Source of the DNA: a virus
Taxonomy: Duplodnaviria; Caudoviricetes
DNA length: 64,000 bases
Reading direction: 5' to 3' (one strand)
Virus record (IMG/VR): IMGVR_UViG_3300001580_000017
Coordinates: 1-64,000 of that record
In this document: in pieces, positions 7,979-55,294 of the stretch
Numbering within the stretch: position 1 is the stretch's first letter
Layout: each line of letters begins with the position of its first letter
Notes under the pieces: model-generated
What the model was told of the DNA's origin: nothing
Databases searched by the model: none
What the model saw: only the letters and a program-made list of their open reading frames with translations
Made by a program: the position numbers and the translations under genes

Positions 7979-8689
7979 TTATTCACAAACTTCTATAACT
8001 CGGCATTTAGAAAATCTCACTTTTCCTCTCTGCACAGTAATAATATCATTGATATTAACTTCTATATTAATTAAAGTATCTCCCTCGTTCCAATAATTAG
8101 GTGTTCCTCCATGTAATCCGTTGGCACAAGATACCGGATTGATATCGCTGTTTGGTTCTTCTGCAATTTCACCAATTTTATAAAGGAAATTTCTATCATA
8201 ACTGGATGTAAATATAGTGGGGTCATCAGTTTTATTTACTCTTTTTGATATTAATATGATTTTTTGATTATTATATAGATTCATGCCGAGTTGATTTTTT
8301 AATGTATCCTTTATTGTTTCGTTTTTTGTTATATATCCAGTGATTATAGTATTTTCATCTTTTACCTTAGCATTTCCATATACCTTAGCATCTCCATAGA
8401 CCTTAGCATTTCCATATACCTTAGCATTTCCATAGACCTTAGCATCTTCATCTACCTTAGCATTTCCATAGACCAGAGCATTTCCATAGACCTTAGCATC
8501 TTCATCTACCTTAGCATTTCCATAGACCTTAGCATTTCCATAGACCCAAGCATCTCCATCTTGACTTAGATTTTTCGCTGACTCAATCCATCCCCCGAGA
8601 TCACCTTCGATGACATTACCAAAACTCTTTAAAGCTATGATTTGACATAAACCATATTTCTTTGTTTGTGTTAATTCATATTTTTTCAT
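7979..8689 (-). CDS. Hexapeptide-repeat (LpxA-like beta-helix) phage protein
   Basis: GDLGGWIES..NLSQDGDAWVYGNAKV repeats; C-terminal CANGLH; start moved to ATG 8689 (GGAGAG SD, promoter upstream). Confidence 0.8.
   Translation of the reverse strand: MKKYELTQTKKYGLCQIIALKSFGNVIEGDLGGWIESAKNLSQDGDAWVYGNAKVYGNAKVDEDAKVYGNALVYGNAKVDEDAKVYGNAKVYGNAKVYGDAKVYGNAKVKDENTIITGYITKNETIKDTLKNQLGMNLYNNQKIILISKRVNKTDDPTIFTSSYDRNFLYKIGEIAEEPNSDINPVSCANGLHGGTPNYWNEGDTLINIEVNINDIITVQRGKVRFSKCRVIEVCE
8366..8545 (-). repeat. Ten in-frame 18-nt tandem repeats encoding VYGNAK-type units
   Basis: CCTTAGCATTTCCATAGA and variants on the plus strand. Confidence 0.9.
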
Positions 8690-8719
8690 TTTTCTCTCCG
8701 GATTTTGTTTGTTGAGGGA

Positions 8720-8748
8720 AATATACGAAATAAAAAAGGCAATGTCAA
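8720..8748 (-). promoter_or_regulatory. Early sigma70-like promoter
   Basis: TTGACA-N17-TATATT, with downstream sequence similar to the 19866 promoter. Confidence 0.85.
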
Positions 8749-8768
8749 GGAAAAAATTAAATAATAAT

Positions 8769-8835
8769 AAAAAAATCCTCTGGGGAGAGACCAAAGGATT
8801 TTTCGTTACAGAGATAAAAATGATTTATGAACTAC
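8769..8835 (-). ncRNA. Candidate ~67-nt small RNA ending in a terminator with UCUCUCC loop
   Basis: Own promoter at 8842..8870, no ORF, stem AAAAATCCTTTGG/CCAGAGGATTTTT plus U-tail; twin at 19767. Confidence 0.6.
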
Positions 8836-8841
8836 AATAGA

Positions 8842-8870
8842 AAGATAAACAAACTTTTTTATTTAGTCAA
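8842..8870 (-). promoter_or_regulatory. Early sigma70-like promoter
   Basis: TTGACT-N17-TATCTT. Confidence 0.75.
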
Positions 8871-8873
8871 CAC

Positions 8874-9746
8874 CTATTTTGCATAATTTAAAGGAACTTT
8901 ATCATAGCTCAATATTTTCAATGCTTGGATTCTATGATTTCCTTCTGAAATTTTTCCTTTTACAATGAATGGAGAATAAAACAAACCATTTTCTGCTATA
9001 CTTTTTAGAAAATGATAAAATTCTGCTAAGTACATATTACCAAATCTTGCTATTGGTTCACCATTTTTACCATATTCAACTGTAAAATTTCTTTTTTCAT
9101 TATTATATCCGGGAATAGAAAGAGCATCATCAATATCAACCCATTCATCTGGTTTAACTTTTAATTTCCATTCCGATATAGGCAAAGGATTTAAAGTTTG
9201 TTTAACATATCTCAAAAATTGATGCTTATCCATATTATTAAATTTATCATAGTCCTTGCTCCACTCATCATAAGAAACATATCCGTATTCATCAATAGAT
9301 TCTTTCATTAATTGTTTTTCATAATCTTGAGATTTTAACCAACTCATTTGTATAAATTTTATAGAATGATTGTTTTGTTCTGCTCTTTTAAATATTTGTT
9401 TTATATCCCAATTATATTCCATTTCAATTTCATTGTGACCGTAACTTTCTGCTAAGTATATATGTTTCGTATCTCCGTACTGCTGAATTAATATAAAATG
9501 TTCTATTGTATTACTCAAGTCATACATATCTTCAATCATCGGTAATATATTTTTACGAGCCAGATCATCATATATATCAGAATGAATTTTTTCGGTTGTA
9601 CACATAATCAATGTTCCGTCAACCAATATTACCCCTCTCGCATCTTCCGGTAATAAATTCCATTCTTTTGTTGTTCTCGGATTAACTATATAACCAAATG
9701 ATTCCAATAATTTCTTTTCATACAGTTTAATTAAAATCTTATTCAT
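8874..9746 (-). CDS. Putative internal protein with C-terminal ParB/Srx-like motif
   Basis: Leader ...KKLLES; ISEGNHRIQAL; N-domain resembles 22983..23462. Confidence 0.55.
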   Translation of the reverse strand: MNKILIKLYEKKLLESFGYIVNPRTTKEWNLLPEDARGVILVDGTLIMCTTEKIHSDIYDDLARKNILPMIEDMYDLSNTIEHFILIQQYGDTKHIYLAESYGHNEIEMEYNWDIKQIFKRAEQNNHSIKFIQMSWLKSQDYEKQLMKESIDEYGYVSYDEWSKDYDKFNNMDKHQFLRYVKQTLNPLPISEWKLKVKPDEWVDIDDALSIPGYNNEKRNFTVEYGKNGEPIARFGNMYLAEFYHFLKSIAENGLFYSPFIVKGKISEGNHRIQALKILSYDKVPLNYAK

Positions 9747-19682: not shown

Positions 19683-19705
19683 ATTAACTCCCTTTTGTTT
19701 TTATT

Positions 19706-19713
19706 TATTTATA
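19706..19713 (-). promoter_or_regulatory. T4-type late promoter TATAAATA
   Basis: Exact octamer upstream of gp26. Confidence 0.8.
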
Positions 19714-19731
19714 AAATTTTGAAAATAAATG

Positions 19732-19760
19732 TTGACAAGAATGAAAAGATTGTTTACCTT
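19732..19760 (+). promoter_or_regulatory. Early sigma70-like promoter
   Basis: TTGACA-N17-TACCTT followed by TCTATTGTAGTT, same as at the 8842 promoter. Confidence 0.8.
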
Positions 19761-19766
19761 TCTATT

Positions 19767-19835
19767 GTAGTTAAGTTTTCGGTTTTATGTTTTCATTTCC
19801 GAAAAATCCTGAGGCCTCTCCCCTTGGGATTTTTT
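19767..19835 (+). ncRNA. Candidate ~69-nt small RNA ending in a terminator with CCUCUC loop
   Basis: Stem AAAAATCCTGAGG/CCTTGGGATTTTT with G-U pairs and U-tail. Confidence 0.6.
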
Positions 19836-19865
19836 ATTTAATGAAGAAGATTTTAATCTTTTTCC

Positions 19866-19894
19866 TTGACAAATGAATTTTTATTTCGTATATT
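19866..19894 (+). promoter_or_regulatory. Early sigma70-like promoter
   Basis: TTGACA-N17-TATATT. Confidence 0.85.
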
Positions 19895-19922
19895 TCCTTC
19901 AACAATCAATCAGGAGAGAAAA

Positions 19923-20258
19923 ATGTTAAAAATTTATGGTAGAAGAACCAACGAAGCCAAAGCTCTGATGAAAGAATTGACAGAAGAGAACTATAAAGAA
20001 CAACTGATTGATAGAATAAACAAAAATGCAGAAAAACTCACAGAAGAAGTAAAAGCAAGAGATACACACGAAGAAATGATAAAGTGGTTTATTAAGGTAA
20101 TAGAACAGGATAAACAGCAAGTAACGCGGATGGTAGCAGAAGAAACTGGTGATATGTACTCTGCTTGCTGGGTGGTATTGGATGGAGAAAAAGACTTGAT
20201 AAAATTGTTAAACGATGATTATGGTTGGTATATCGAGGAACATCTCTCGCGAAAATAA
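19923..20258 (+). CDS. Hypothetical early protein
   Basis: GGAGAG SD and ATG at 19923; the track start at 19866 lies within the promoter. Confidence 0.7.
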   Translation: MLKIYGRRTNEAKALMKELTEENYKEQLIDRINKNAEKLTEEVKARDTHEEMIKWFIKVIEQDKQQVTRMVAEETGDMYSACWVVLDGEKDLIKLLNDDYGWYIEEHLSRK

Positions 20259-20711
20259 AGCGATCTCTCCATTGTCCTTATATATTTTTTTCAATATAGT
20301 TCTAACAACCATTCGTTTTTCTTTTCCCCCATCATCAAAGGAATCAACTATTATTTTAACATTATAGTTTTCAAGATGCAAACATATTTTGACATATCCG
20401 TTTGCTTGTCTCTTTTTTAATTTTTGATATGCTACTAAATTTATTTTATTTTTGATATGTGAAAGTTCGGAATCATCAGGTACACCAAGTTCATCAATGA
20501 GATGTTTTATTCCTGTAAGAACTCCAGCTTCATCCAAATCATTCATTGACCGATCATACCGAATATCATCAATATGAGTGGTTTTTCCCCAATCTCCGTT
20601 TCTGCTGAAGTAAATGTCCCATCCGCTGTAGTTTTCTTTATAGATAGCCTGTTTATAGTCTTTTGGATGTTCTAAAAGGAGATAGTATTGTTCCATTAGG
20701 ATTTTATTCAT
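20208..20711 (-). CDS. Putative internal protein, possible toxin-like RNase fold
   Basis: Leader MNKILMEQYYLLLE; H..R and C-terminal VVRTI only weakly suggestive. Confidence 0.4.
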   Translation of the reverse strand: MNKILMEQYYLLLEHPKDYKQAIYKENYSGWDIYFSRNGDWGKTTHIDDIRYDRSMNDLDEAGVLTGIKHLIDELGVPDDSELSHIKNKINLVAYQKLKKRQANGYVKICLHLENYNVKIIVDSFDDGGKEKRMVVRTILKKIYKDNGEIALFSREMFLDIPTIIIV

Positions 20712-25733: not shown

Positions 25734-26045
25734 ATGTTGATAATAACTGATAAAACAAAGTTTGAAGAGGAAAGAGAAAGATTATCAAGAATAGATTGTT
25801 TGTCTTGTATGATTGATGAATTAGTTGAAATGGCGGATGAAAGCACAAAATCAATTAAAAAAGTATCAGAGAAAGAATGTTGGAAAATTATCAATAGAAA
25901 GAAAAATTATATGATAAAGAAAAATCCGGTATTAAAAACTGATTTGGAAGAATTTATAGAATTTATCAAGAACGAAAAACTTGAATTGAAAACTCTGAGA
26001 GAAATAGCTACACACATCACACGATACTACAAATCGGTATTATAA
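25734..26045 (+). CDS. Hypothetical early protein
   Basis: GGAGAG SD and promoter upstream. Confidence 0.7.
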   Translation: MLIITDKTKFEEERERLSRIDCLSCMIDELVEMADESTKSIKKVSEKECWKIINRKKNYMIKKNPVLKTDLEEFIEFIKNEKLELKTLREIATHITRYYKSVL

Positions 26046-28472: not shown

Positions 28473-28497
28473 TTTGTTCTCTCCTGTTTAAAAATTT

Positions 28498-28620
28498 TAG
28501 TTTAGTGGAAAGGTTTCATCTGCTACCAGAAAATTCTCTTTTGATTTTATGATTGTTTGCCATACGAACTGGTTATCTTCTTACTCATCAATTCCTTATT
28601 ATCAGTAAACCACTAAACTA
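28498..28620 (-). ncRNA. Candidate structured leader RNA
   Basis: Perfect 11-bp inverted repeat TAGTTTAGTGG/CCACTAAACTA enclosing 101 nt, just downstream of a promoter. Confidence 0.45.
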
Positions 28621-28637
28621 TTTCAACGAACAGAGGA

Positions 28638-28666
28638 AATATAACACAATTTTATTCCAATGTCAA
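28638..28666 (-). promoter_or_regulatory. Early sigma70-like promoter
   Basis: TTGACA-N17-TATATT. Confidence 0.85.
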
Positions 28667-28684
28667 GTAAAATCTTCATAAAAT

Positions 28685-28727: not shown

Positions 28728-29054
28728 TTATTTCTTGTCTTTCAACACCTTTTCCAAATCTTCTTTTTTCATTCCACTGGTATTTATTCCCATATCAGCC
28801 ACTTTTTTCTTCATTTCAAGAAATTCTGCCAGACCGGTTCTTTTGGTTTCAGTCTTTTCGGTTTTCTCGACTTTCACTTCTTTTTTTGTTTCTTCCTTTA
28901 CTCTTGTGAAATACTGACCGAAATCATTCATGATTTTTTCATCTATTTCAATTTCTTGTCCCGGAATGAGATGATATGTTTTTCCGAGAGCCATGAAATA
29001 AAAAGCTCCGGGCTTCCCTGTTCGTTTGTTTACTGTTACTTTGATTTTCGCCAT
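28728..29054 (-). CDS. Small basic protein with possible C-terminal HeH/Rho-N-like motif
   Basis: GINTSGMKKEDLEKVL; Lys/Glu-rich linker. Confidence 0.45.
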   Translation of the reverse strand: MAKIKVTVNKRTGKPGAFYFMALGKTYHLIPGQEIEIDEKIMNDFGQYFTRVKEETKKEVKVEKTEKTETKRTGLAEFLEMKKKVADMGINTSGMKKEDLEKVLKDKK

Positions 29055-29275
29055 GTTTTTGAATCTCCTTCTGTTTTATTTTTGATTGAATAATACGATC
29101 CTTTTGTCACCAAACTGTCTAATGCAGTTCCATTTTTGTCGTGTGTTCCTGAAATAATGAAATCATCATCATCCCACACTTTAATTTTGCCTCTCAGTGT
29201 TACACCATTTTTTAGAAAAACTTCCAGAACACTATTTTCGTGATCTCGGAAGAAAACATCTCGAACAGCACTCAT
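29036..29275 (-). CDS. hfq: Hfq/Sm-like RNA chaperone
   Basis: RDVFF helix, Sm1 LEVFLKNGVTLRGKIKVWD, divergent Sm2 LVTKGSYYSI. Confidence 0.7.
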   Translation of the reverse strand: MSAVRDVFFRDHENSVLEVFLKNGVTLRGKIKVWDDDDFIISGTHDKNGTALDSLVTKGSYYSIKNKTEGDSKTWRKSK

Positions 29276-35018: not shown

Positions 35019-35047
35019 AAGATAAAGATAAAAAATTATTTTGTCAA
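35019..35047 (-). promoter_or_regulatory. Early sigma70-like promoter
   Basis: TTGACA-N17-TATCTT. Confidence 0.8.
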
Positions 35048-38343: not shown

Positions 38344-38421
38344 TTTTATCTTTCCCCTCTTAATTGTAATTTAAATTTTTCGTTGTATTTTCCGCCACTA
38401 CAATTTCCCAGAACAGAAGGA

Positions 38422-38450
38422 AATATACATAATTTTTATTCAAATGTCAA
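38422..38450 (-). promoter_or_regulatory. Early sigma70-like promoter
   Basis: TTGACA-N17-TATATT. Confidence 0.85.
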
Positions 38451-38481: not shown

Positions 38482-39706
38482 ATGATAAGAACAAGCAAGC
38501 ATATATTAAAATTCGCTAACAAAAATAAATTAGATATGCTTGAACAAATTTATTCTGATTGCAAGAAACAAATTGAAGTTTATATTGATCAAATTGTATC
38601 CGATAAACTTGAATTAAAAAAGATGATGAGTAGTAAGTTATTATCAAATGAATATATCGAGCAATCTAAATGGAAACAAATGTGTTATGAACAAACATCA
38701 GAAATAATAAGAAGTCAGTATAAAAAAGCATCAAATAAAAGATTTAATGTTTACAAAAAGATTTATGCTAAATTAAAAGAACAAAATAGATATAATAAAT
38801 TTATATCAAAGAAATTCTCCGAGTTAAATTTAAAACCAATTCAAACCACGAAATACTTAACTAAACCGAAATTAAATAATATCAGTATTATTATTCATCC
38901 GGAATTACTAAATTTTACATCTGACTCCAACAACTTTGATTCTTTTGTGAGATTAACTGCACCATATAAAAAGAAAACAAATAAAATAAGAAATCACTAT
39001 CAAACCATCAATCTTCCAATCAAGTATCATTCTCAATCAAATAAATTTAGAACTTCTGGTTGGAAGTTAAAGAACTCTATTTCTTTGATCAAAGTCAATA
39101 ATAATTTCTATTTTGATCTATTTTGGGAGAAGGAAGAAGTTGTGAAGAAAGTAAAAGGAAAGCAAATAGGATTAGATTGCGGTTACAAAAAATTACTCAT
39201 TTCATCGGATAATAAAATTTATGATTTGGGTTTAGAAAAAATCTATGAGAAGTTATCAAGAAAGAAACAAGGATCAAAGAATTTTAAACAAGCTTTAACC
39301 GAAAGAGATAATCTAATAAATCAAAGTATAAACAAACTCGAAACAGAAGAAATAAAAATAATTGTAGTTGAAGATTTAAAGAATGTAAAGGCAGGAAGTA
39401 AGTTTAGTAAAAAATTTAACAATAAGCTACAGAGATGGAGTTATCCAAAGGTTTTGAATAAACTATCTATGATTTGTGAGGAACAAGGTATTAATTTAGT
39501 TAGAGTTGATCCTGCTTATACAAGTCAAACATGTAGTGGGTGTGGATTTAAAGATAAAGACAATCGTAAAGCCGAGAAGTTTTTATGTTTGGGTTGTGGA
39601 TATGAAACTGATAGTGATTATAATGCTTCAGTGAATATTCTACATAGAGGCATATATAGTTCCTCTACCGAGAATAATAAAGCTAATTTAAAGGTTAGCT
39701 GACTGT
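38482..39706 (+). mobile_element. tnpB: TnpB-only element (CDS 38482..39702) with right end at GACTGT
   Basis: GLDCG, VVEDL, CxxC..CxxC, DSDYNA; 3' end shared with tnpB-3 up to 39706. Confidence 0.9.
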
Positions 39707-52244: not shown

Positions 52245-53674
52245 TTTCTCTCCCCAACACTTCCGGCAAATTTTAAAAATTTATATTTTCTTTTCCATTC
52301 ATCCAGCATTCCTTGTAATTCTTCTGATGTAAATTCGTTTGATATGCCATAAGAATCTGATATATTTTTTTCTCTTGGTATTTTACTATTGGAACAATAA
52401 TCCGATCCTACCCATACACGATTGTTAAATTTTTCAAATTCGGCTATCAAATTATCTGATACTTTGCTATATACTTCAACAAATTGCCCATGACTTTGTT
52501 TTTCATATGCCGATTCTTCATCAAATATTGATTCTTTTATTTTTTTCTTTGTCTCCATGAAATCATATTCTTGATTCGCAAAGGCATCTTCAAAATCTTG
52601 TGCCAGCAGTTTACAAGCTTCGTCTTTAACTTCTTTTGTTACTGCTTTAACTATGCTCTTACCGTCATCTGCCCATTTTACGGTCTCATCATACCAAAAT
52701 TTAGCCGCATTATTTACAACAGTTTTGAATATGATCGGAGCTTTTGCTTTATCATAAATATCGCTTTTCTTTTTTCTTGTGAGAGATTTAAAACAAGCAA
52801 TTTTGGTGTCGTAGAATTTTTTTGTATTATCAACAACCAGTACGACATCATCAGCATCGGCAACATAAGTGTCAAATCCTTTTTCTTCTTTCAGGAGAGT
52901 AGTCAGAATTTCTTTTTGTTCTTTTATGTTTTTTGACAGTGATTCTTTTACTGATGGAGTTGATTCTTCCAAATTATATTTATCAGCATTATGATTATGA
53001 ACTCTTTCAAAGGTCTTATCATCAAAATAAGTACTCGATTTCAGATTGCCGTTAACTGGTCTTTTTCTATAAAGTTCATAAACACCCTTTTCTTTCAGAT
53101 GTCTCATTCCATAGTTAGACATTGAATCACCAAAGAATTTCATTGTTTTGTGATCAAAGAAATGTGAACCAGTTAAACCCACATTGTATTTTAAATCAGC
53201 AACGGTTCTTACTGGATAAAAATCAATTGTTTTTTCTTCGTTTATTGCATCACTTTTCCATATAGGACTTCCAGTGTTACCCCAACTACTGCCATCTTTG
53301 TCTTTTTCCCATACTTCTACATAAACATCTTCCATTTGATTCTCTGCATATCTTTTTGCCATTCTGATAGCACTTTCTGGTGTTCTTGCATATTCGGTGT
53401 TTATACATTCATCTCCATCTACTGTATAAACAAATACACCGTATTTATAGTAATCAAAATCGCCGTCTTTTGCTTCATCGCCATGCTTAGATTCTTCATT
53501 CAGCTTAGAATAAAATTCTCTTTTTCTCGTCACATTCAGTTCATTTACATTCTTAACACCGAAACTTCTAAGTAGCGATGTATATTTATCAGAATAAGTA
53601 TCTTTGACCTGTTCCGATTCGTTCAATTTATCAACAACGCGGTAGTAATCTTGTAAATCTTTGTTTTGTTCCAT
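52241..53674 (-). CDS. Multi-domain internal polyprotein-like protein
   Basis: LNES, LNEE, INEE, LEES, VKES, LKEE, IKES sites separate segments. Confidence 0.6.
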   Translation of the reverse strand: MEQNKDLQDYYRVVDKLNESEQVKDTYSDKYTSLLRSFGVKNVNELNVTRKREFYSKLNEESKHGDEAKDGDFDYYKYGVFVYTVDGDECINTEYARTPESAIRMAKRYAENQMEDVYVEVWEKDKDGSSWGNTGSPIWKSDAINEEKTIDFYPVRTVADLKYNVGLTGSHFFDHKTMKFFGDSMSNYGMRHLKEKGVYELYRKRPVNGNLKSSTYFDDKTFERVHNHNADKYNLEESTPSVKESLSKNIKEQKEILTTLLKEEKGFDTYVADADDVVLVVDNTKKFYDTKIACFKSLTRKKKSDIYDKAKAPIIFKTVVNNAAKFWYDETVKWADDGKSIVKAVTKEVKDEACKLLAQDFEDAFANQEYDFMETKKKIKESIFDEESAYEKQSHGQFVEVYSKVSDNLIAEFEKFNNRVWVGSDYCSNSKIPREKNISDSYGISNEFTSEELQGMLDEWKRKYKFLKFAGSVGERK

Positions 53675-53839: not shown

Positions 53840-54052
53840 ATGGAAGAAATTATGAAAAAATTATCAGAATATGCAACTGAACACAACATCACATATCGTA
53901 CCGCATGGAATCATTTTGCGCGAGGATTAATTAGTGGAGCATATCAGCTATCAAATGGCACAGTAGTTATACCGGACAGCAATACTGCCGATTTAGAAAA
54001 AGCTATACATGATTTAAAAAATATAATTACAGAATTAAAAAAAGATAAATGA
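53840..54052 (+). CDS. IS607 TnpA-type HTH domain only (no serine recombinase domain)
   Basis: KLSEYATEHNITYRTAWNHF..G....AYQLSNGTVVI; ATGA overlap with tnpB. Confidence 0.8.
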   Translation: MEEIMKKLSEYATEHNITYRTAWNHFARGLISGAYQLSNGTVVIPDSNTADLEKAIHDLKNIITELKKDK

Positions 54053-55252
54053 TAAGAAGAAGCAAACACATACTAAAATTCGCGAACAAAAATAAATTGA
54101 GTATGCTTGAACAAATTTATTCGGATTGCAAGAAACAAATTGAAGTTTACATTGATCAGATAATATCAGGGAAATTAGAGTTAAAGAAGATGCCGAGCAG
54201 TAGGTTGTTGAGTAATGAATATATCGAACAATCTAAGTGGAAAGAAATGTGCTATCAACAAATGACAGGAATGATTGGAAGTCAATATAAACGCGCATCC
54301 AATAAAAGATTTAATTCTTATAAAAAAGTTTATGCTAAACTAAAAGAACAAAATAGATATAATAAATTTACTTCAAAAAAATTCTCGGAATTAAATTTAA
54401 AACCAATCTATCAAACAAAATATTTTACTAAACCAAAATTAACTGGTGTAAATATAATAGTACACAAAGATTTATTTAATTTTGCATCGGATTCTAAAAA
54501 TTTTGACTCCTTTGTTAGATTAACTACTCCATATAAAAAATCAGCAGGAAGATACAAAACAATAAATCTTCCAATTAAATATCATTCTCATTCCAATAAA
54601 TTTAGAACGAGTGGTTGGAAATTAAAGAACTCTATTTCTTTGATCAAAGTCAATAATAATTTCTACATTGATTTGTTATGGGAAAAAGAAGTCCCCAAGA
54701 AGATTGAAGGAGAATCCATCGGATTAGATTGTGGTTACAAGAAGCTACTTATTTCATCAGAGAACAAAATTTATGATTTGGGTATGGAAAAAATTTATAA
54801 CAAACTAAACAGAAAGAAACAAGGAAGCAAAAACTTTAAGCAAGCATTAACCGAAAGAGATAATTTAATAAATCAGAGTATAAACAAGATTGAAACAGAA
54901 AATATAAAAACAATCGTAGTCGAAGATTTAAAAAATGTAAAGTTAGGAAGTAAGTTTAGTAAAAAATTTAATAACAAGCTACAGAGATGGAGTTATCCAA
55001 AGGTTTTGAATAAACTATCTATGATTTGTGAGGAACAAGGAATAAACTTGGTTAGAGTTGATCCGAGTTATACAAGTCAAACATGTAGCAAATGTGGACA
55101 CAAAGATAAGAAAAACCGTTCTGGTGAACGGTTTTTGTGTTTGAGTTGTGGAATGGAGATGGATGCTGACTATAATGCATCTATAAACATTTTACATAGA
55201 GGCATATATAGTTCCTCTACCGATAAAGCTAATTTAAAGGTTAGCTGACTGT
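54049..55252 (+). mobile_element. tnpB: IS607-like TnpB (CDS 54049..55248) with right end at GACTGT
   Basis: GLDCG, VVEDL, CSKC..CLSC, DADYNA; close paralog of tnpB-2. Confidence 0.9.
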
Positions 55253-55265
55253 AAAGTTTGACGGT

Positions 55266-55294
55266 AATATAACCTTTTAATTCCTGAATGTCAA
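55266..55294 (-). promoter_or_regulatory. Early sigma70-like promoter firing into the tnpB-3 right end
   Basis: TTGACA-N17-TATATT. Confidence 0.75.

Follow-up and report, generated by a model that had tools for sequence, protein, structure and literature searches.

Two PeSL-type cassettes with an additional promoter in a distant T4-like phage: candidate short early RNAs with an anti-Shine-Dalgarno loop

Introduction

At two sites in the genome of an uncultured phage, an early gene is preceded by a terminator hairpin whose loop could pair with the Shine-Dalgarno sequence (SD) of that gene, and ahead of each hairpin lies a further putative promoter with no coding sequence to serve. The question raised by this locus is whether the two cassettes encode short RNAs that would mask ribosome-binding sites in trans, or whether such RNAs are a by-product of the way in which early promoters are packaged in T4-type genomes. 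We know of almost no functions assigned to small RNAs in virulent phages; the transcriptome maps of LUZ7 and phiKZ reportedly list candidate small RNAs without a mechanism.

The phage and its genomic context

The window, that is, the whole stretch of 64,000 nt that was analysed, comprises positions 1-64,000 of the 75-kb IMG/VR record IMGVR_UViG_3300001580_000017 (Duplodnaviria; Caudoviricetes; GC content of the record, 30.7%), which represents about 40% of the phage genome. Counts for the whole phage cover ~122 kb, namely the 75-kb record and 47 kb of adjacent sequence fetched stepwise. Judged by its gene content, this uncultured phage belongs to the T4-like phages as a distant member: the family-B polymerase that it encodes shows 28% identity to gp43 of T4-type phages, genes for T4_baseplate, gp53-like and tail proteins are located between the two cassette copies (A and B), gp13- and gp15-like genes (T4-like markers) are close by, and a T4-type late promoter, TATAAATA, is present at 19706-19713 (minus strand), 24 nt ahead of the baseplate gene. 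No tRNA or tmRNA genes were found in the sequence analysed. Upstream of copy A lies a late baseplate/tail operon of ~11 kb that ends at 8874.

Single small early genes driven by promoters of the type called P2 below (19923-20258 and 25734-26045) form plus-strand islands in the minus-strand late arrays, and the first of them shares 51 nt with the convergent gene 20208-20711. In relatives the baseplate gene is instead flanked by neighbours on the same strand, and for this reason the island looks like an insertion.

Anatomy of the two cassettes

The cassette is present in two diverged copies of ~220 bp, copy A at 8680-8900 (minus strand) and copy B at 19700-19925 (plus strand), both with the same order of features: promoter P1, an ORF-less stretch of 66-68 nt, a terminator, promoter P2, a leader and GGAGAGAAAAATG. 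The twin layout that the initial annotation had described at 8720-8870 and 19732..19920 is thus confirmed. The features are the following:

8842..8870, minus strand: P1 of copy A (TTGACT at 8865-8870, 17 nt, TATCTT at 8842-8847; -35, -10 and spacing are kept in copy B)
8830-8841, minus strand: conserved block TCTATTGTAGTT of copy A, identical in copy B
8769..8835, minus strand: predicted RNA of copy A, 66-67 nt from about G8835 to the U-tract, without an ORF (99.8 bits with covariance model R1)
8771..8803, minus strand: terminator of copy A, a 13-bp stem (8791-8803 with 8771-8783) and the loop UCUCUCC (8784-8790)
8720-8748, minus strand: P2 of copy A (TTGACA at 8743-8748, 17 nt, TATATT at 8720-8725)
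8687..8748, minus strand: PeSL-type unit of copy A from P2 to the start codon (SD GGAGAGA at 8693-8699, ATG at 8687-8689)
7979..8689, minus strand: gene A, the downstream early gene (236-aa hexapeptide beta-solenoid protein, phrog_5070)
19732..19760, plus strand: P1 of copy B (TTGACA, 17 nt, TACCTT)
19767..19835, plus strand: predicted RNA of copy B, ~68 nt, ORF-less (102.7 bits with covariance model R1)
19802..19834, plus strand: terminator of copy B, 13 bp with two wobble pairs and the loop CCUCUCC (19815-19821)
19866..19925, plus strand: P2, leader, SD (GGAGAGA at 19913-19919) and ATG (19923-19925) of copy B
19923..20258, plus strand: gene B, the downstream early gene (111 aa, without a family match)

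Over ~220 nt the two copies share 84% of alignment columns (74% by BLAST), and the duplication took in everything between P1 and the ATG as a single unit. The consensus of P1 is GTTGAC(T/A), a 17-nt spacer and TA(T/C)CTT, followed by the identical block TCTATTGTAGTT, ~25 unconserved bases, CG, AAAAAUCCU..GG, the loop (U/C)CUCUCC, CC..GGAUUUUUU(U) and a variable spacer; P2 reads TTGACA-17-TATATT and is followed by the leader and by GGAGAGAAAAATG, which is identical in A and B. In copy A, P1 begins 4 nt past the stop codon of the last tail-module gene and the U-tract of the terminator extends to 8769. Copy B has no gene upstream on the same strand, and its terminator would therefore serve P1 alone.

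The proposal that the RNA is non-coding also held, since neither copy contains a conserved ORF. A small ORF within the RNA was considered and rejected: copy A has no ATG and the ATG frame of copy B is not conserved.

Eleven in-register tandem units of 18 nt in gene A (8319-8588) encode the hexapeptide beta-solenoid (YdcK-type), which gave weak Hexapep and bactofilin-like matches and hits to phrog_5070 and phrog_7964 at 1e-41. Homologs of gene A are common in phages and occur without the cassette; none of the 25 loci with such homologs that were inspected has a cassette upstream.

A known part and a new part

According to two reports, T4-type phages carry mobile elements named PeSL (promoter-early stem-loop), composed of a stem-loop terminator and a strong sigma70 early promoter, AT-rich on its upstream side, with an SD and ATG at the 3' end, to which recombination and the formation of mini-circles are ascribed, that are present in many copies per genome beside small ORFan genes and of which degraded halves have been recorded near indels (Arbiol et al., 2010, PMC2839356; Comeau et al., 2014, PMC4122927). 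The same traits are found here. In both copies P2 is preceded, at a distance of 20-30 nt, by a 13-bp hairpin with a U-tract, P2 itself is a strong sigma70-like early promoter (TTGACA, 17 nt, TATATT), and GGAGAGAAAAATG, which supplies the SD and start codon, recurs behind other early promoters. The record holds at least 7 promoters of the P2 type and the 47 kb beside it more than 10, and copies beside small ORFans are represented by the repeat families D7, I3 and I4. By its sequence, the terminator-P2-SD-ATG part fits a PeSL-type cassette, a known kind of element, which the initial annotation had missed although the layout that it gave was correct. What is new is P1 and the short RNA that it would feed into the PeSL terminator.

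This ancestry is enough to explain why there are two copies, why a second promoter follows and, in large part, why they share an SD, with no need of a small RNA (sRNA); the last of these points counts against an anti-SD function. In the simplest account of this kind, the PeSL terminator insulates P2 from upstream transcription (at copy A, that of the late baseplate/tail operon), P1 is a leftover or an auxiliary promoter (e.g. what remains of an adjacent cassette that lost its ORF), the RNA has no function in trans, and the match between loop and SD is a coincidence or the trace of a gene start that underwent inverted duplication. This account, rated as somewhat unlikely, agrees with the fact that a terminator directly before a P2-type promoter, the defining layout of PeSL, recurs at 28681/28666 and 40784/40769, and with the degraded half-PeSLs described there (PMC2839356, PMC4122927). 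It is at odds with copy B, which has no same-strand upstream gene to terminate.

Promoter P1

Taken by itself, P1 matches the consensus at 9/12 positions, which is the chance level in AT-rich DNA (71 sites found vs 75 expected), while P2 matches it at 11/12 and is among the top matches of the promoter scan. P1 is regarded as a promoter because the copies have kept it and because a pair of promoters sharing its type (AAAAT..TGTTGAC, 17 nt, TATCTT or TATATT) lie immediately ahead of genes, at 35019-35047 (minus strand) and 68162-68190 (plus strand). The cassettes probably yield real short early transcripts from P1. The P1 class is distinct from the P2 class (CTTGACAT.., TATATTTCC or TATATTAC), and the two classes may differ in timing.

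Hairpin, strand and pattern of conservation

The hairpins of copies A and B fold with -16.2 and -18.0 kcal/mol (z of -3.4 and -3.1, respectively), have stems of 13-14 bp and end in U-tails of 7 (copy A) and 6 (copy B) residues; the loop (U/C)CUCUCC is unpaired in both the MFE and the centroid folds. In spite of five substitutions, 13/13 pairs are intact in A and B, with compensation at two of them and a change from U-A to U-G at one, although with n=2 sequences the covariation test is weak (105/500 shuffles). The strand is fixed by the U-G pairs, since they turn into C-A mismatches on the other strand; the strand call that the initial annotation had based on these wobbles was therefore upheld. 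Transcription from the opposite strand was rejected, as the stems would be mismatched and the T-tracts shorter.

These hairpins are two of the ~8 perfect terminators in the 75 kb. A CU-rich loop is present only in these two, both of them fed by P1, the loops of other strong terminators being ATTA, TATTATT, TTTTTC, ACCA and AAAT; this restriction of CUCUCC to P1-fed terminators speaks against a by-product of PeSL architecture.

The divergence between the copies is uneven. The neutral identity of A and B, measured on flanks, RNA body and spacer, is 46%, which is near saturation, and the RNA body is identical at 12/27 positions against 49/54 in the remaining RNA (Fisher p=1e-5). The start block is identical at 12/12 positions (p=9e-5 against the neutral 46%), the outer stem at 10/10 and the loop at 6/7 (p=0.04 against the neutral 46%). 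Such a pattern argues that P1, the 5' end of the RNA and the hairpin, and probably the sequence of the loop too, have been maintained by selection over the long time that followed the duplication. A defunct promoter would be expected to decay like the near-random RNA body, and the retention of the P1 -35 and -10 elements, the 12-nt start block and the hairpin therefore argues against a relic and against the reading of the RNA as a by-product.

Considered as a seed, the 12-nt start block gave no good complementary site in the phage. An octamer of this block, ATTGTAGT, is shared with two related untranslated leaders (UUCUGUUC..GAAAU(U)GU(U)UAGUGG) that follow P2-type promoters (28473-28666 and 38344-38450, minus strand) and extend over ~60-160 nt before the first gene.

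The early Shine-Dalgarno sequence and its pairing with the loop

The 75-kb record contains the sequence GGAGAGA 16 times, in 9 cases at a distance of 2-5 nt before an ATG. Its use as an SD by early genes, as claimed at the outset, was borne out for 9 genes in the record, including all those for which it had been proposed and one at 52253. Over the 122 kb it accounts for 23 of the 99 GGAG-type sites and is enriched directly behind early promoters (11/18 vs 12/81 elsewhere; p=1.3e-4), most of the 12 sites elsewhere belonging to later genes of early units. The AGA extension of the SD is not required for pairing with the 3' end of 16S rRNA.

The loop of copy A is the exact complement of GGAGAGA (7/7), as had been suggested, and that of copy B complements it at 6/7; the duplex of the copy A loop with the SD comprises 7 bp with -10.1 kcal/mol. 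Considering the complementarity together with the conservation of P1 and the hairpin, the reading of the locus that ranks first is an anti-SD riboregulator, which is itself less likely than not and is preferred, tentatively and by a narrow margin, over the by-product or insulator account. Besides the ancestry of the SD, a point of timing stands against this preference: an early-type P1 would act at the same time as the promoters of the supposed targets.

An antisense stretch in copy A and the possibility of a cis-acting leader

Pairing of 6+8+9 bp is possible between nucleotides 2-28 of the copy A RNA and the start of gene A (7979-8689), where it would cover the SD, the AUG and codons 3-6. The duplex of this 5' part with gene A reaches -20.7 kcal/mol, compared with -8.3 +/- 2.3 for dinucleotide shuffles (0/1000), and in a duplex scan limited to gene start regions (n=100) the start of gene A was the top partner of the copy A RNA; 2 of 30 shuffles reached the copy A energy against any of the 100 regions. 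In alignments at the sequence level the top match of copy A was not significant (15/200 shuffles), and no extended antisense stretch was detected in copy B (p=0.45). As a separate candidate, the body of copy B was considered as an antisense to the start of a DUF932 gene and rejected, since its 9+13/14 match is at chance level (132/200 shuffles).

Read on the opposite strand, copy A (8805-8841, plus strand) gives AGAGATAAAAATG ATT TAT GAA CTA CAA TAG (MIYELQ*). This looks like a decayed version of the start of gene A, with its SD and initial codons (MKKYELTQ). Because of this resemblance, the antisense stretch may have originated by inverted duplication, a history that would suit the account of the RNA as a by-product.

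That the best partner of copy A is the gene on its own transcript is also compatible with a cis-acting leader. Under this alternative, read-through from P1 would give a long 5' UTR in which the anti-SD loop folds onto the SD and AUG, with the anti-start stretch of copy A contributing, so that the mRNA derived from P1 is translationally silent and the one derived from P2 is active. The duplication of the block from P1 to the ATG as one unit fits such a leader, and in the consensus fold of RNA that reads through the terminator, UUUUUCC, located upstream of P2, can also pair with GGAGAGA. It is nevertheless quite unlikely, considering that the terminator is strong (13-14 bp and 6-7 U), that the 5' part of the RNA has no conserved antiterminator alternative, that the predicted cis helix shows no covariation and that copy B lacks the antisense stretch. 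The anti-SD reading in trans remains preferred.

A putative Hfq-like protein

The suggested link of the RNAs to a phage Hfq is weak, as it comes down to a sub-threshold match and a low-confidence model. A 79-aa ORF (29036-29275, minus strand) gives a weak Hfq/Sm1 signal (Pfam, 17.1 bits vs a cut-off of 27) and E values of 0.07-0.13 against Hfq chains in the PDB. Its single-sequence AlphaFold model contains a helix and five strands in an Sm-like order with low confidence (pLDDT 58), and no match to this model was found with Foldseek.

The short RNAs combine a hairpin with a tail of 6-7 U and an AU-rich 5' part, as Hfq clients do. These features, together with the weak signal in the 79-aa ORF, could be accommodated by a decoy or sponge, that is, a short abundant early RNA that titrates the Hfq-like protein, S1 or another protein, or that occupies the host RNA polymerase. 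Such a role is considered very unlikely, since the Hfq match falls below the family cut-off, with neither a confident model nor a structural neighbour, and since it leaves the exact complementarity between the loop and the early SD unexplained, which the anti-SD reading accounts for.

Antitermination and the late switch

The succession of a promoter, a short terminated transcript and a gene, with a -10-like TATTGT within the conserved start block, recalls the antitermination module that lambda has in PR'/6S RNA, in which a constitutive short RNA would later be extended by read-through with the help of a phage factor. In T4-type phages the switch to late genes proceeds via TATAAATA promoters, not via Q, and one such promoter is present at 19706-19713. 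Moreover, genes A and B are each served by a consensus P2 placed after the terminator and ahead of the SD, unlike the genes of Q units, which depend on read-through, and no antiterminator was found; this explanation is thus highly improbable.

Search for homologs and short units in relatives

No homolog of the cassette RNA was found by blastn against GenBank phages. An exact 15-mer of the start block retrieved only chance matches in IMG/VR, and a degenerate terminator pattern gave 0 matches in IMG/VR and 5 unrelated high-GC matches in JGI metagenomes. Covariance model R1 detected only copies A and B in ~122 kb and nothing in the relatives, and the comparison with Rfam was negative both at the gathering score and with the limit relaxed to E<=1. 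The lack of homologs and of further copies counts against the anti-SD reading. Scans of IMG/VR with single baseplate and tail proteins yielded no close relatives. At copy B, the further assemblies of this phage show 100% identity, and hence provide no micro-variation to use.

In relatives with ~52% amino-acid identity, units consisting of an early promoter, 63-83 nt without an ORF, a terminator and a late promoter TATAAATA are present at another site, where relative L147 has only a terminator:

L148, 6880-6985: short unit, between the helicase-module genes and TATAAATA
L149, 7055-7175 (same unit in L150, ~425-545): short unit, between the helicase-module genes and TATAAATA
L147, 6270-6320: terminator without a promoter at the equivalent site

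Judged from these units, short early terminated transcripts may be recurrent in this phage group, a point in favour of the anti-SD RNA. The loops of the units are GAACA and GAGA, not anti-SD sequences, which is a point against it, and the promoterless terminator of L147 is in line with the view that the short RNA is incidental to a PeSL terminator.

In the window, a consensus early promoter at 55266-55294 (minus strand) is followed ~150 nt on by a perfect bidirectional terminator (55106-55141). The RNA expected from this unit (55106-55294) would be short and run antisense to the 3' end of a TnpB-like gene (54049-55248), of which a paralog with ~82% identity is encoded at 38482-39702. The guide RNA of TnpB-like genes is normally located at the 3' end of the gene.

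Proposed mechanism and its implications

Based on the evidence discussed above, the following sequence of events can be hypothesized for the preferred anti-SD reading. The sigma70-type P1, added before a PeSL-type cassette, would fire and make only a non-coding RNA of 66-68 nt that ends at the terminator of the cassette. The accumulated RNA would act in trans, its loop pairing with the extended SD GGAGAG(A) of at least 23 mostly early phage mRNAs, and in copy A a further 23 bp could form with the SD, AUG and codons 3-6 of gene A. Pairing would hinder the binding of the 30S subunit, so that early protein synthesis is damped or shut off, and the outcome would be an RNA counterpart of the functions of T4 RegA and RegB. 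In its most extended form, two immediate-early sRNAs of 67 nt, each grafted onto a mobile PeSL cassette, would use a perfect 7-nt anti-SD loop in the terminator to silence a PeSL-driven ORFan regulon (at least 23 GGAGAGA mRNAs), with the antisense arm of copy A and possibly the help of an Hfq-like protein, replacing RegA/RegB; as a whole this scenario is speculative and rated as unlikely.

If the hypothesis is true, a single 7-nt loop would be the counterpart of a class of early ribosome-binding sites in use throughout the phage, and a directly testable model of RNA-mediated shut-off of early genes would be available. It would also assign a new role to PeSL, so far regarded as promoter/terminator and recombination modules, in that the terminator of a mobile cassette becomes an sRNA by the addition of a promoter. 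If it is wrong, the locus is an ordinary pair of PeSL with a relic promoter.

Comparison with known systems

In common with PeSL, the present cassettes have a stem-loop terminator upstream of an early promoter, an SD and start codon at the 3' end and many copies in a T4-like genome. They differ in that two of them have an extra promoter, so that the stem-loop would also end a 67-nt ORF-less transcript, and in that the loop of only these two is complementary to their own SD. A term search of PMC2839356 ('small RNA', 0 occurrences) and PMC4122927 retrieved no such RNA.

Among bacterial sRNAs, the multicopy LhrC RNAs bind SD regions through CU-rich terminator loops (PMC4132741), which sets a precedent for the anti-SD reading. 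The predicted phage RNAs resemble LhrC1-5 (Listeria), RsaE, RNAIII, SprD and FsrA of low-GC bacteria in being multicopy with their own promoter and terminator, both predicted here and conserved between the copies, and in having CU-rich unpaired loops, including that of the terminator, which in the UCCC-loop sRNAs block translation at G-rich SDs (PMC4132741). As in anti-SD sRNAs, the C/U-rich motif is located in a loop and is complementary to SDs. Conversely, the bacterial RNAs are chromosomal, stress-induced and contain several motifs each, while those described here are phage-encoded, have one loop motif (plus the body stretch of copy A) and their pairing is a prediction; with neither sequence nor Rfam similarity to LhrC, RsaE or RNAIII, they would be analogs at most, not members of the group.

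The c4 antisense RNA of phages P1 and P7, of ~77 nt, is encoded upstream of icd-ant in the same orientation and masks a ribosome-binding site via short segments; it arises by processing of an operon transcript in a temperate phage, whose immunity it controls. In contrast, the RNAs proposed here would have their own promoter and terminator, belong to a T4-like phage and have many potential targets.

In T4, RegA is a translational repressor of early mRNAs and RegB an endonuclease that cuts GGAG in early SDs. No Pfam match to RegA or RegB was found in the 75-kb record (~40% of the genome). Those regulators are proteins and the ones proposed here would be RNAs, yet the proposed outcome would be alike, early mRNAs being silenced at the ribosome-binding site, and in both cases the early SDs form a distinct sequence class.
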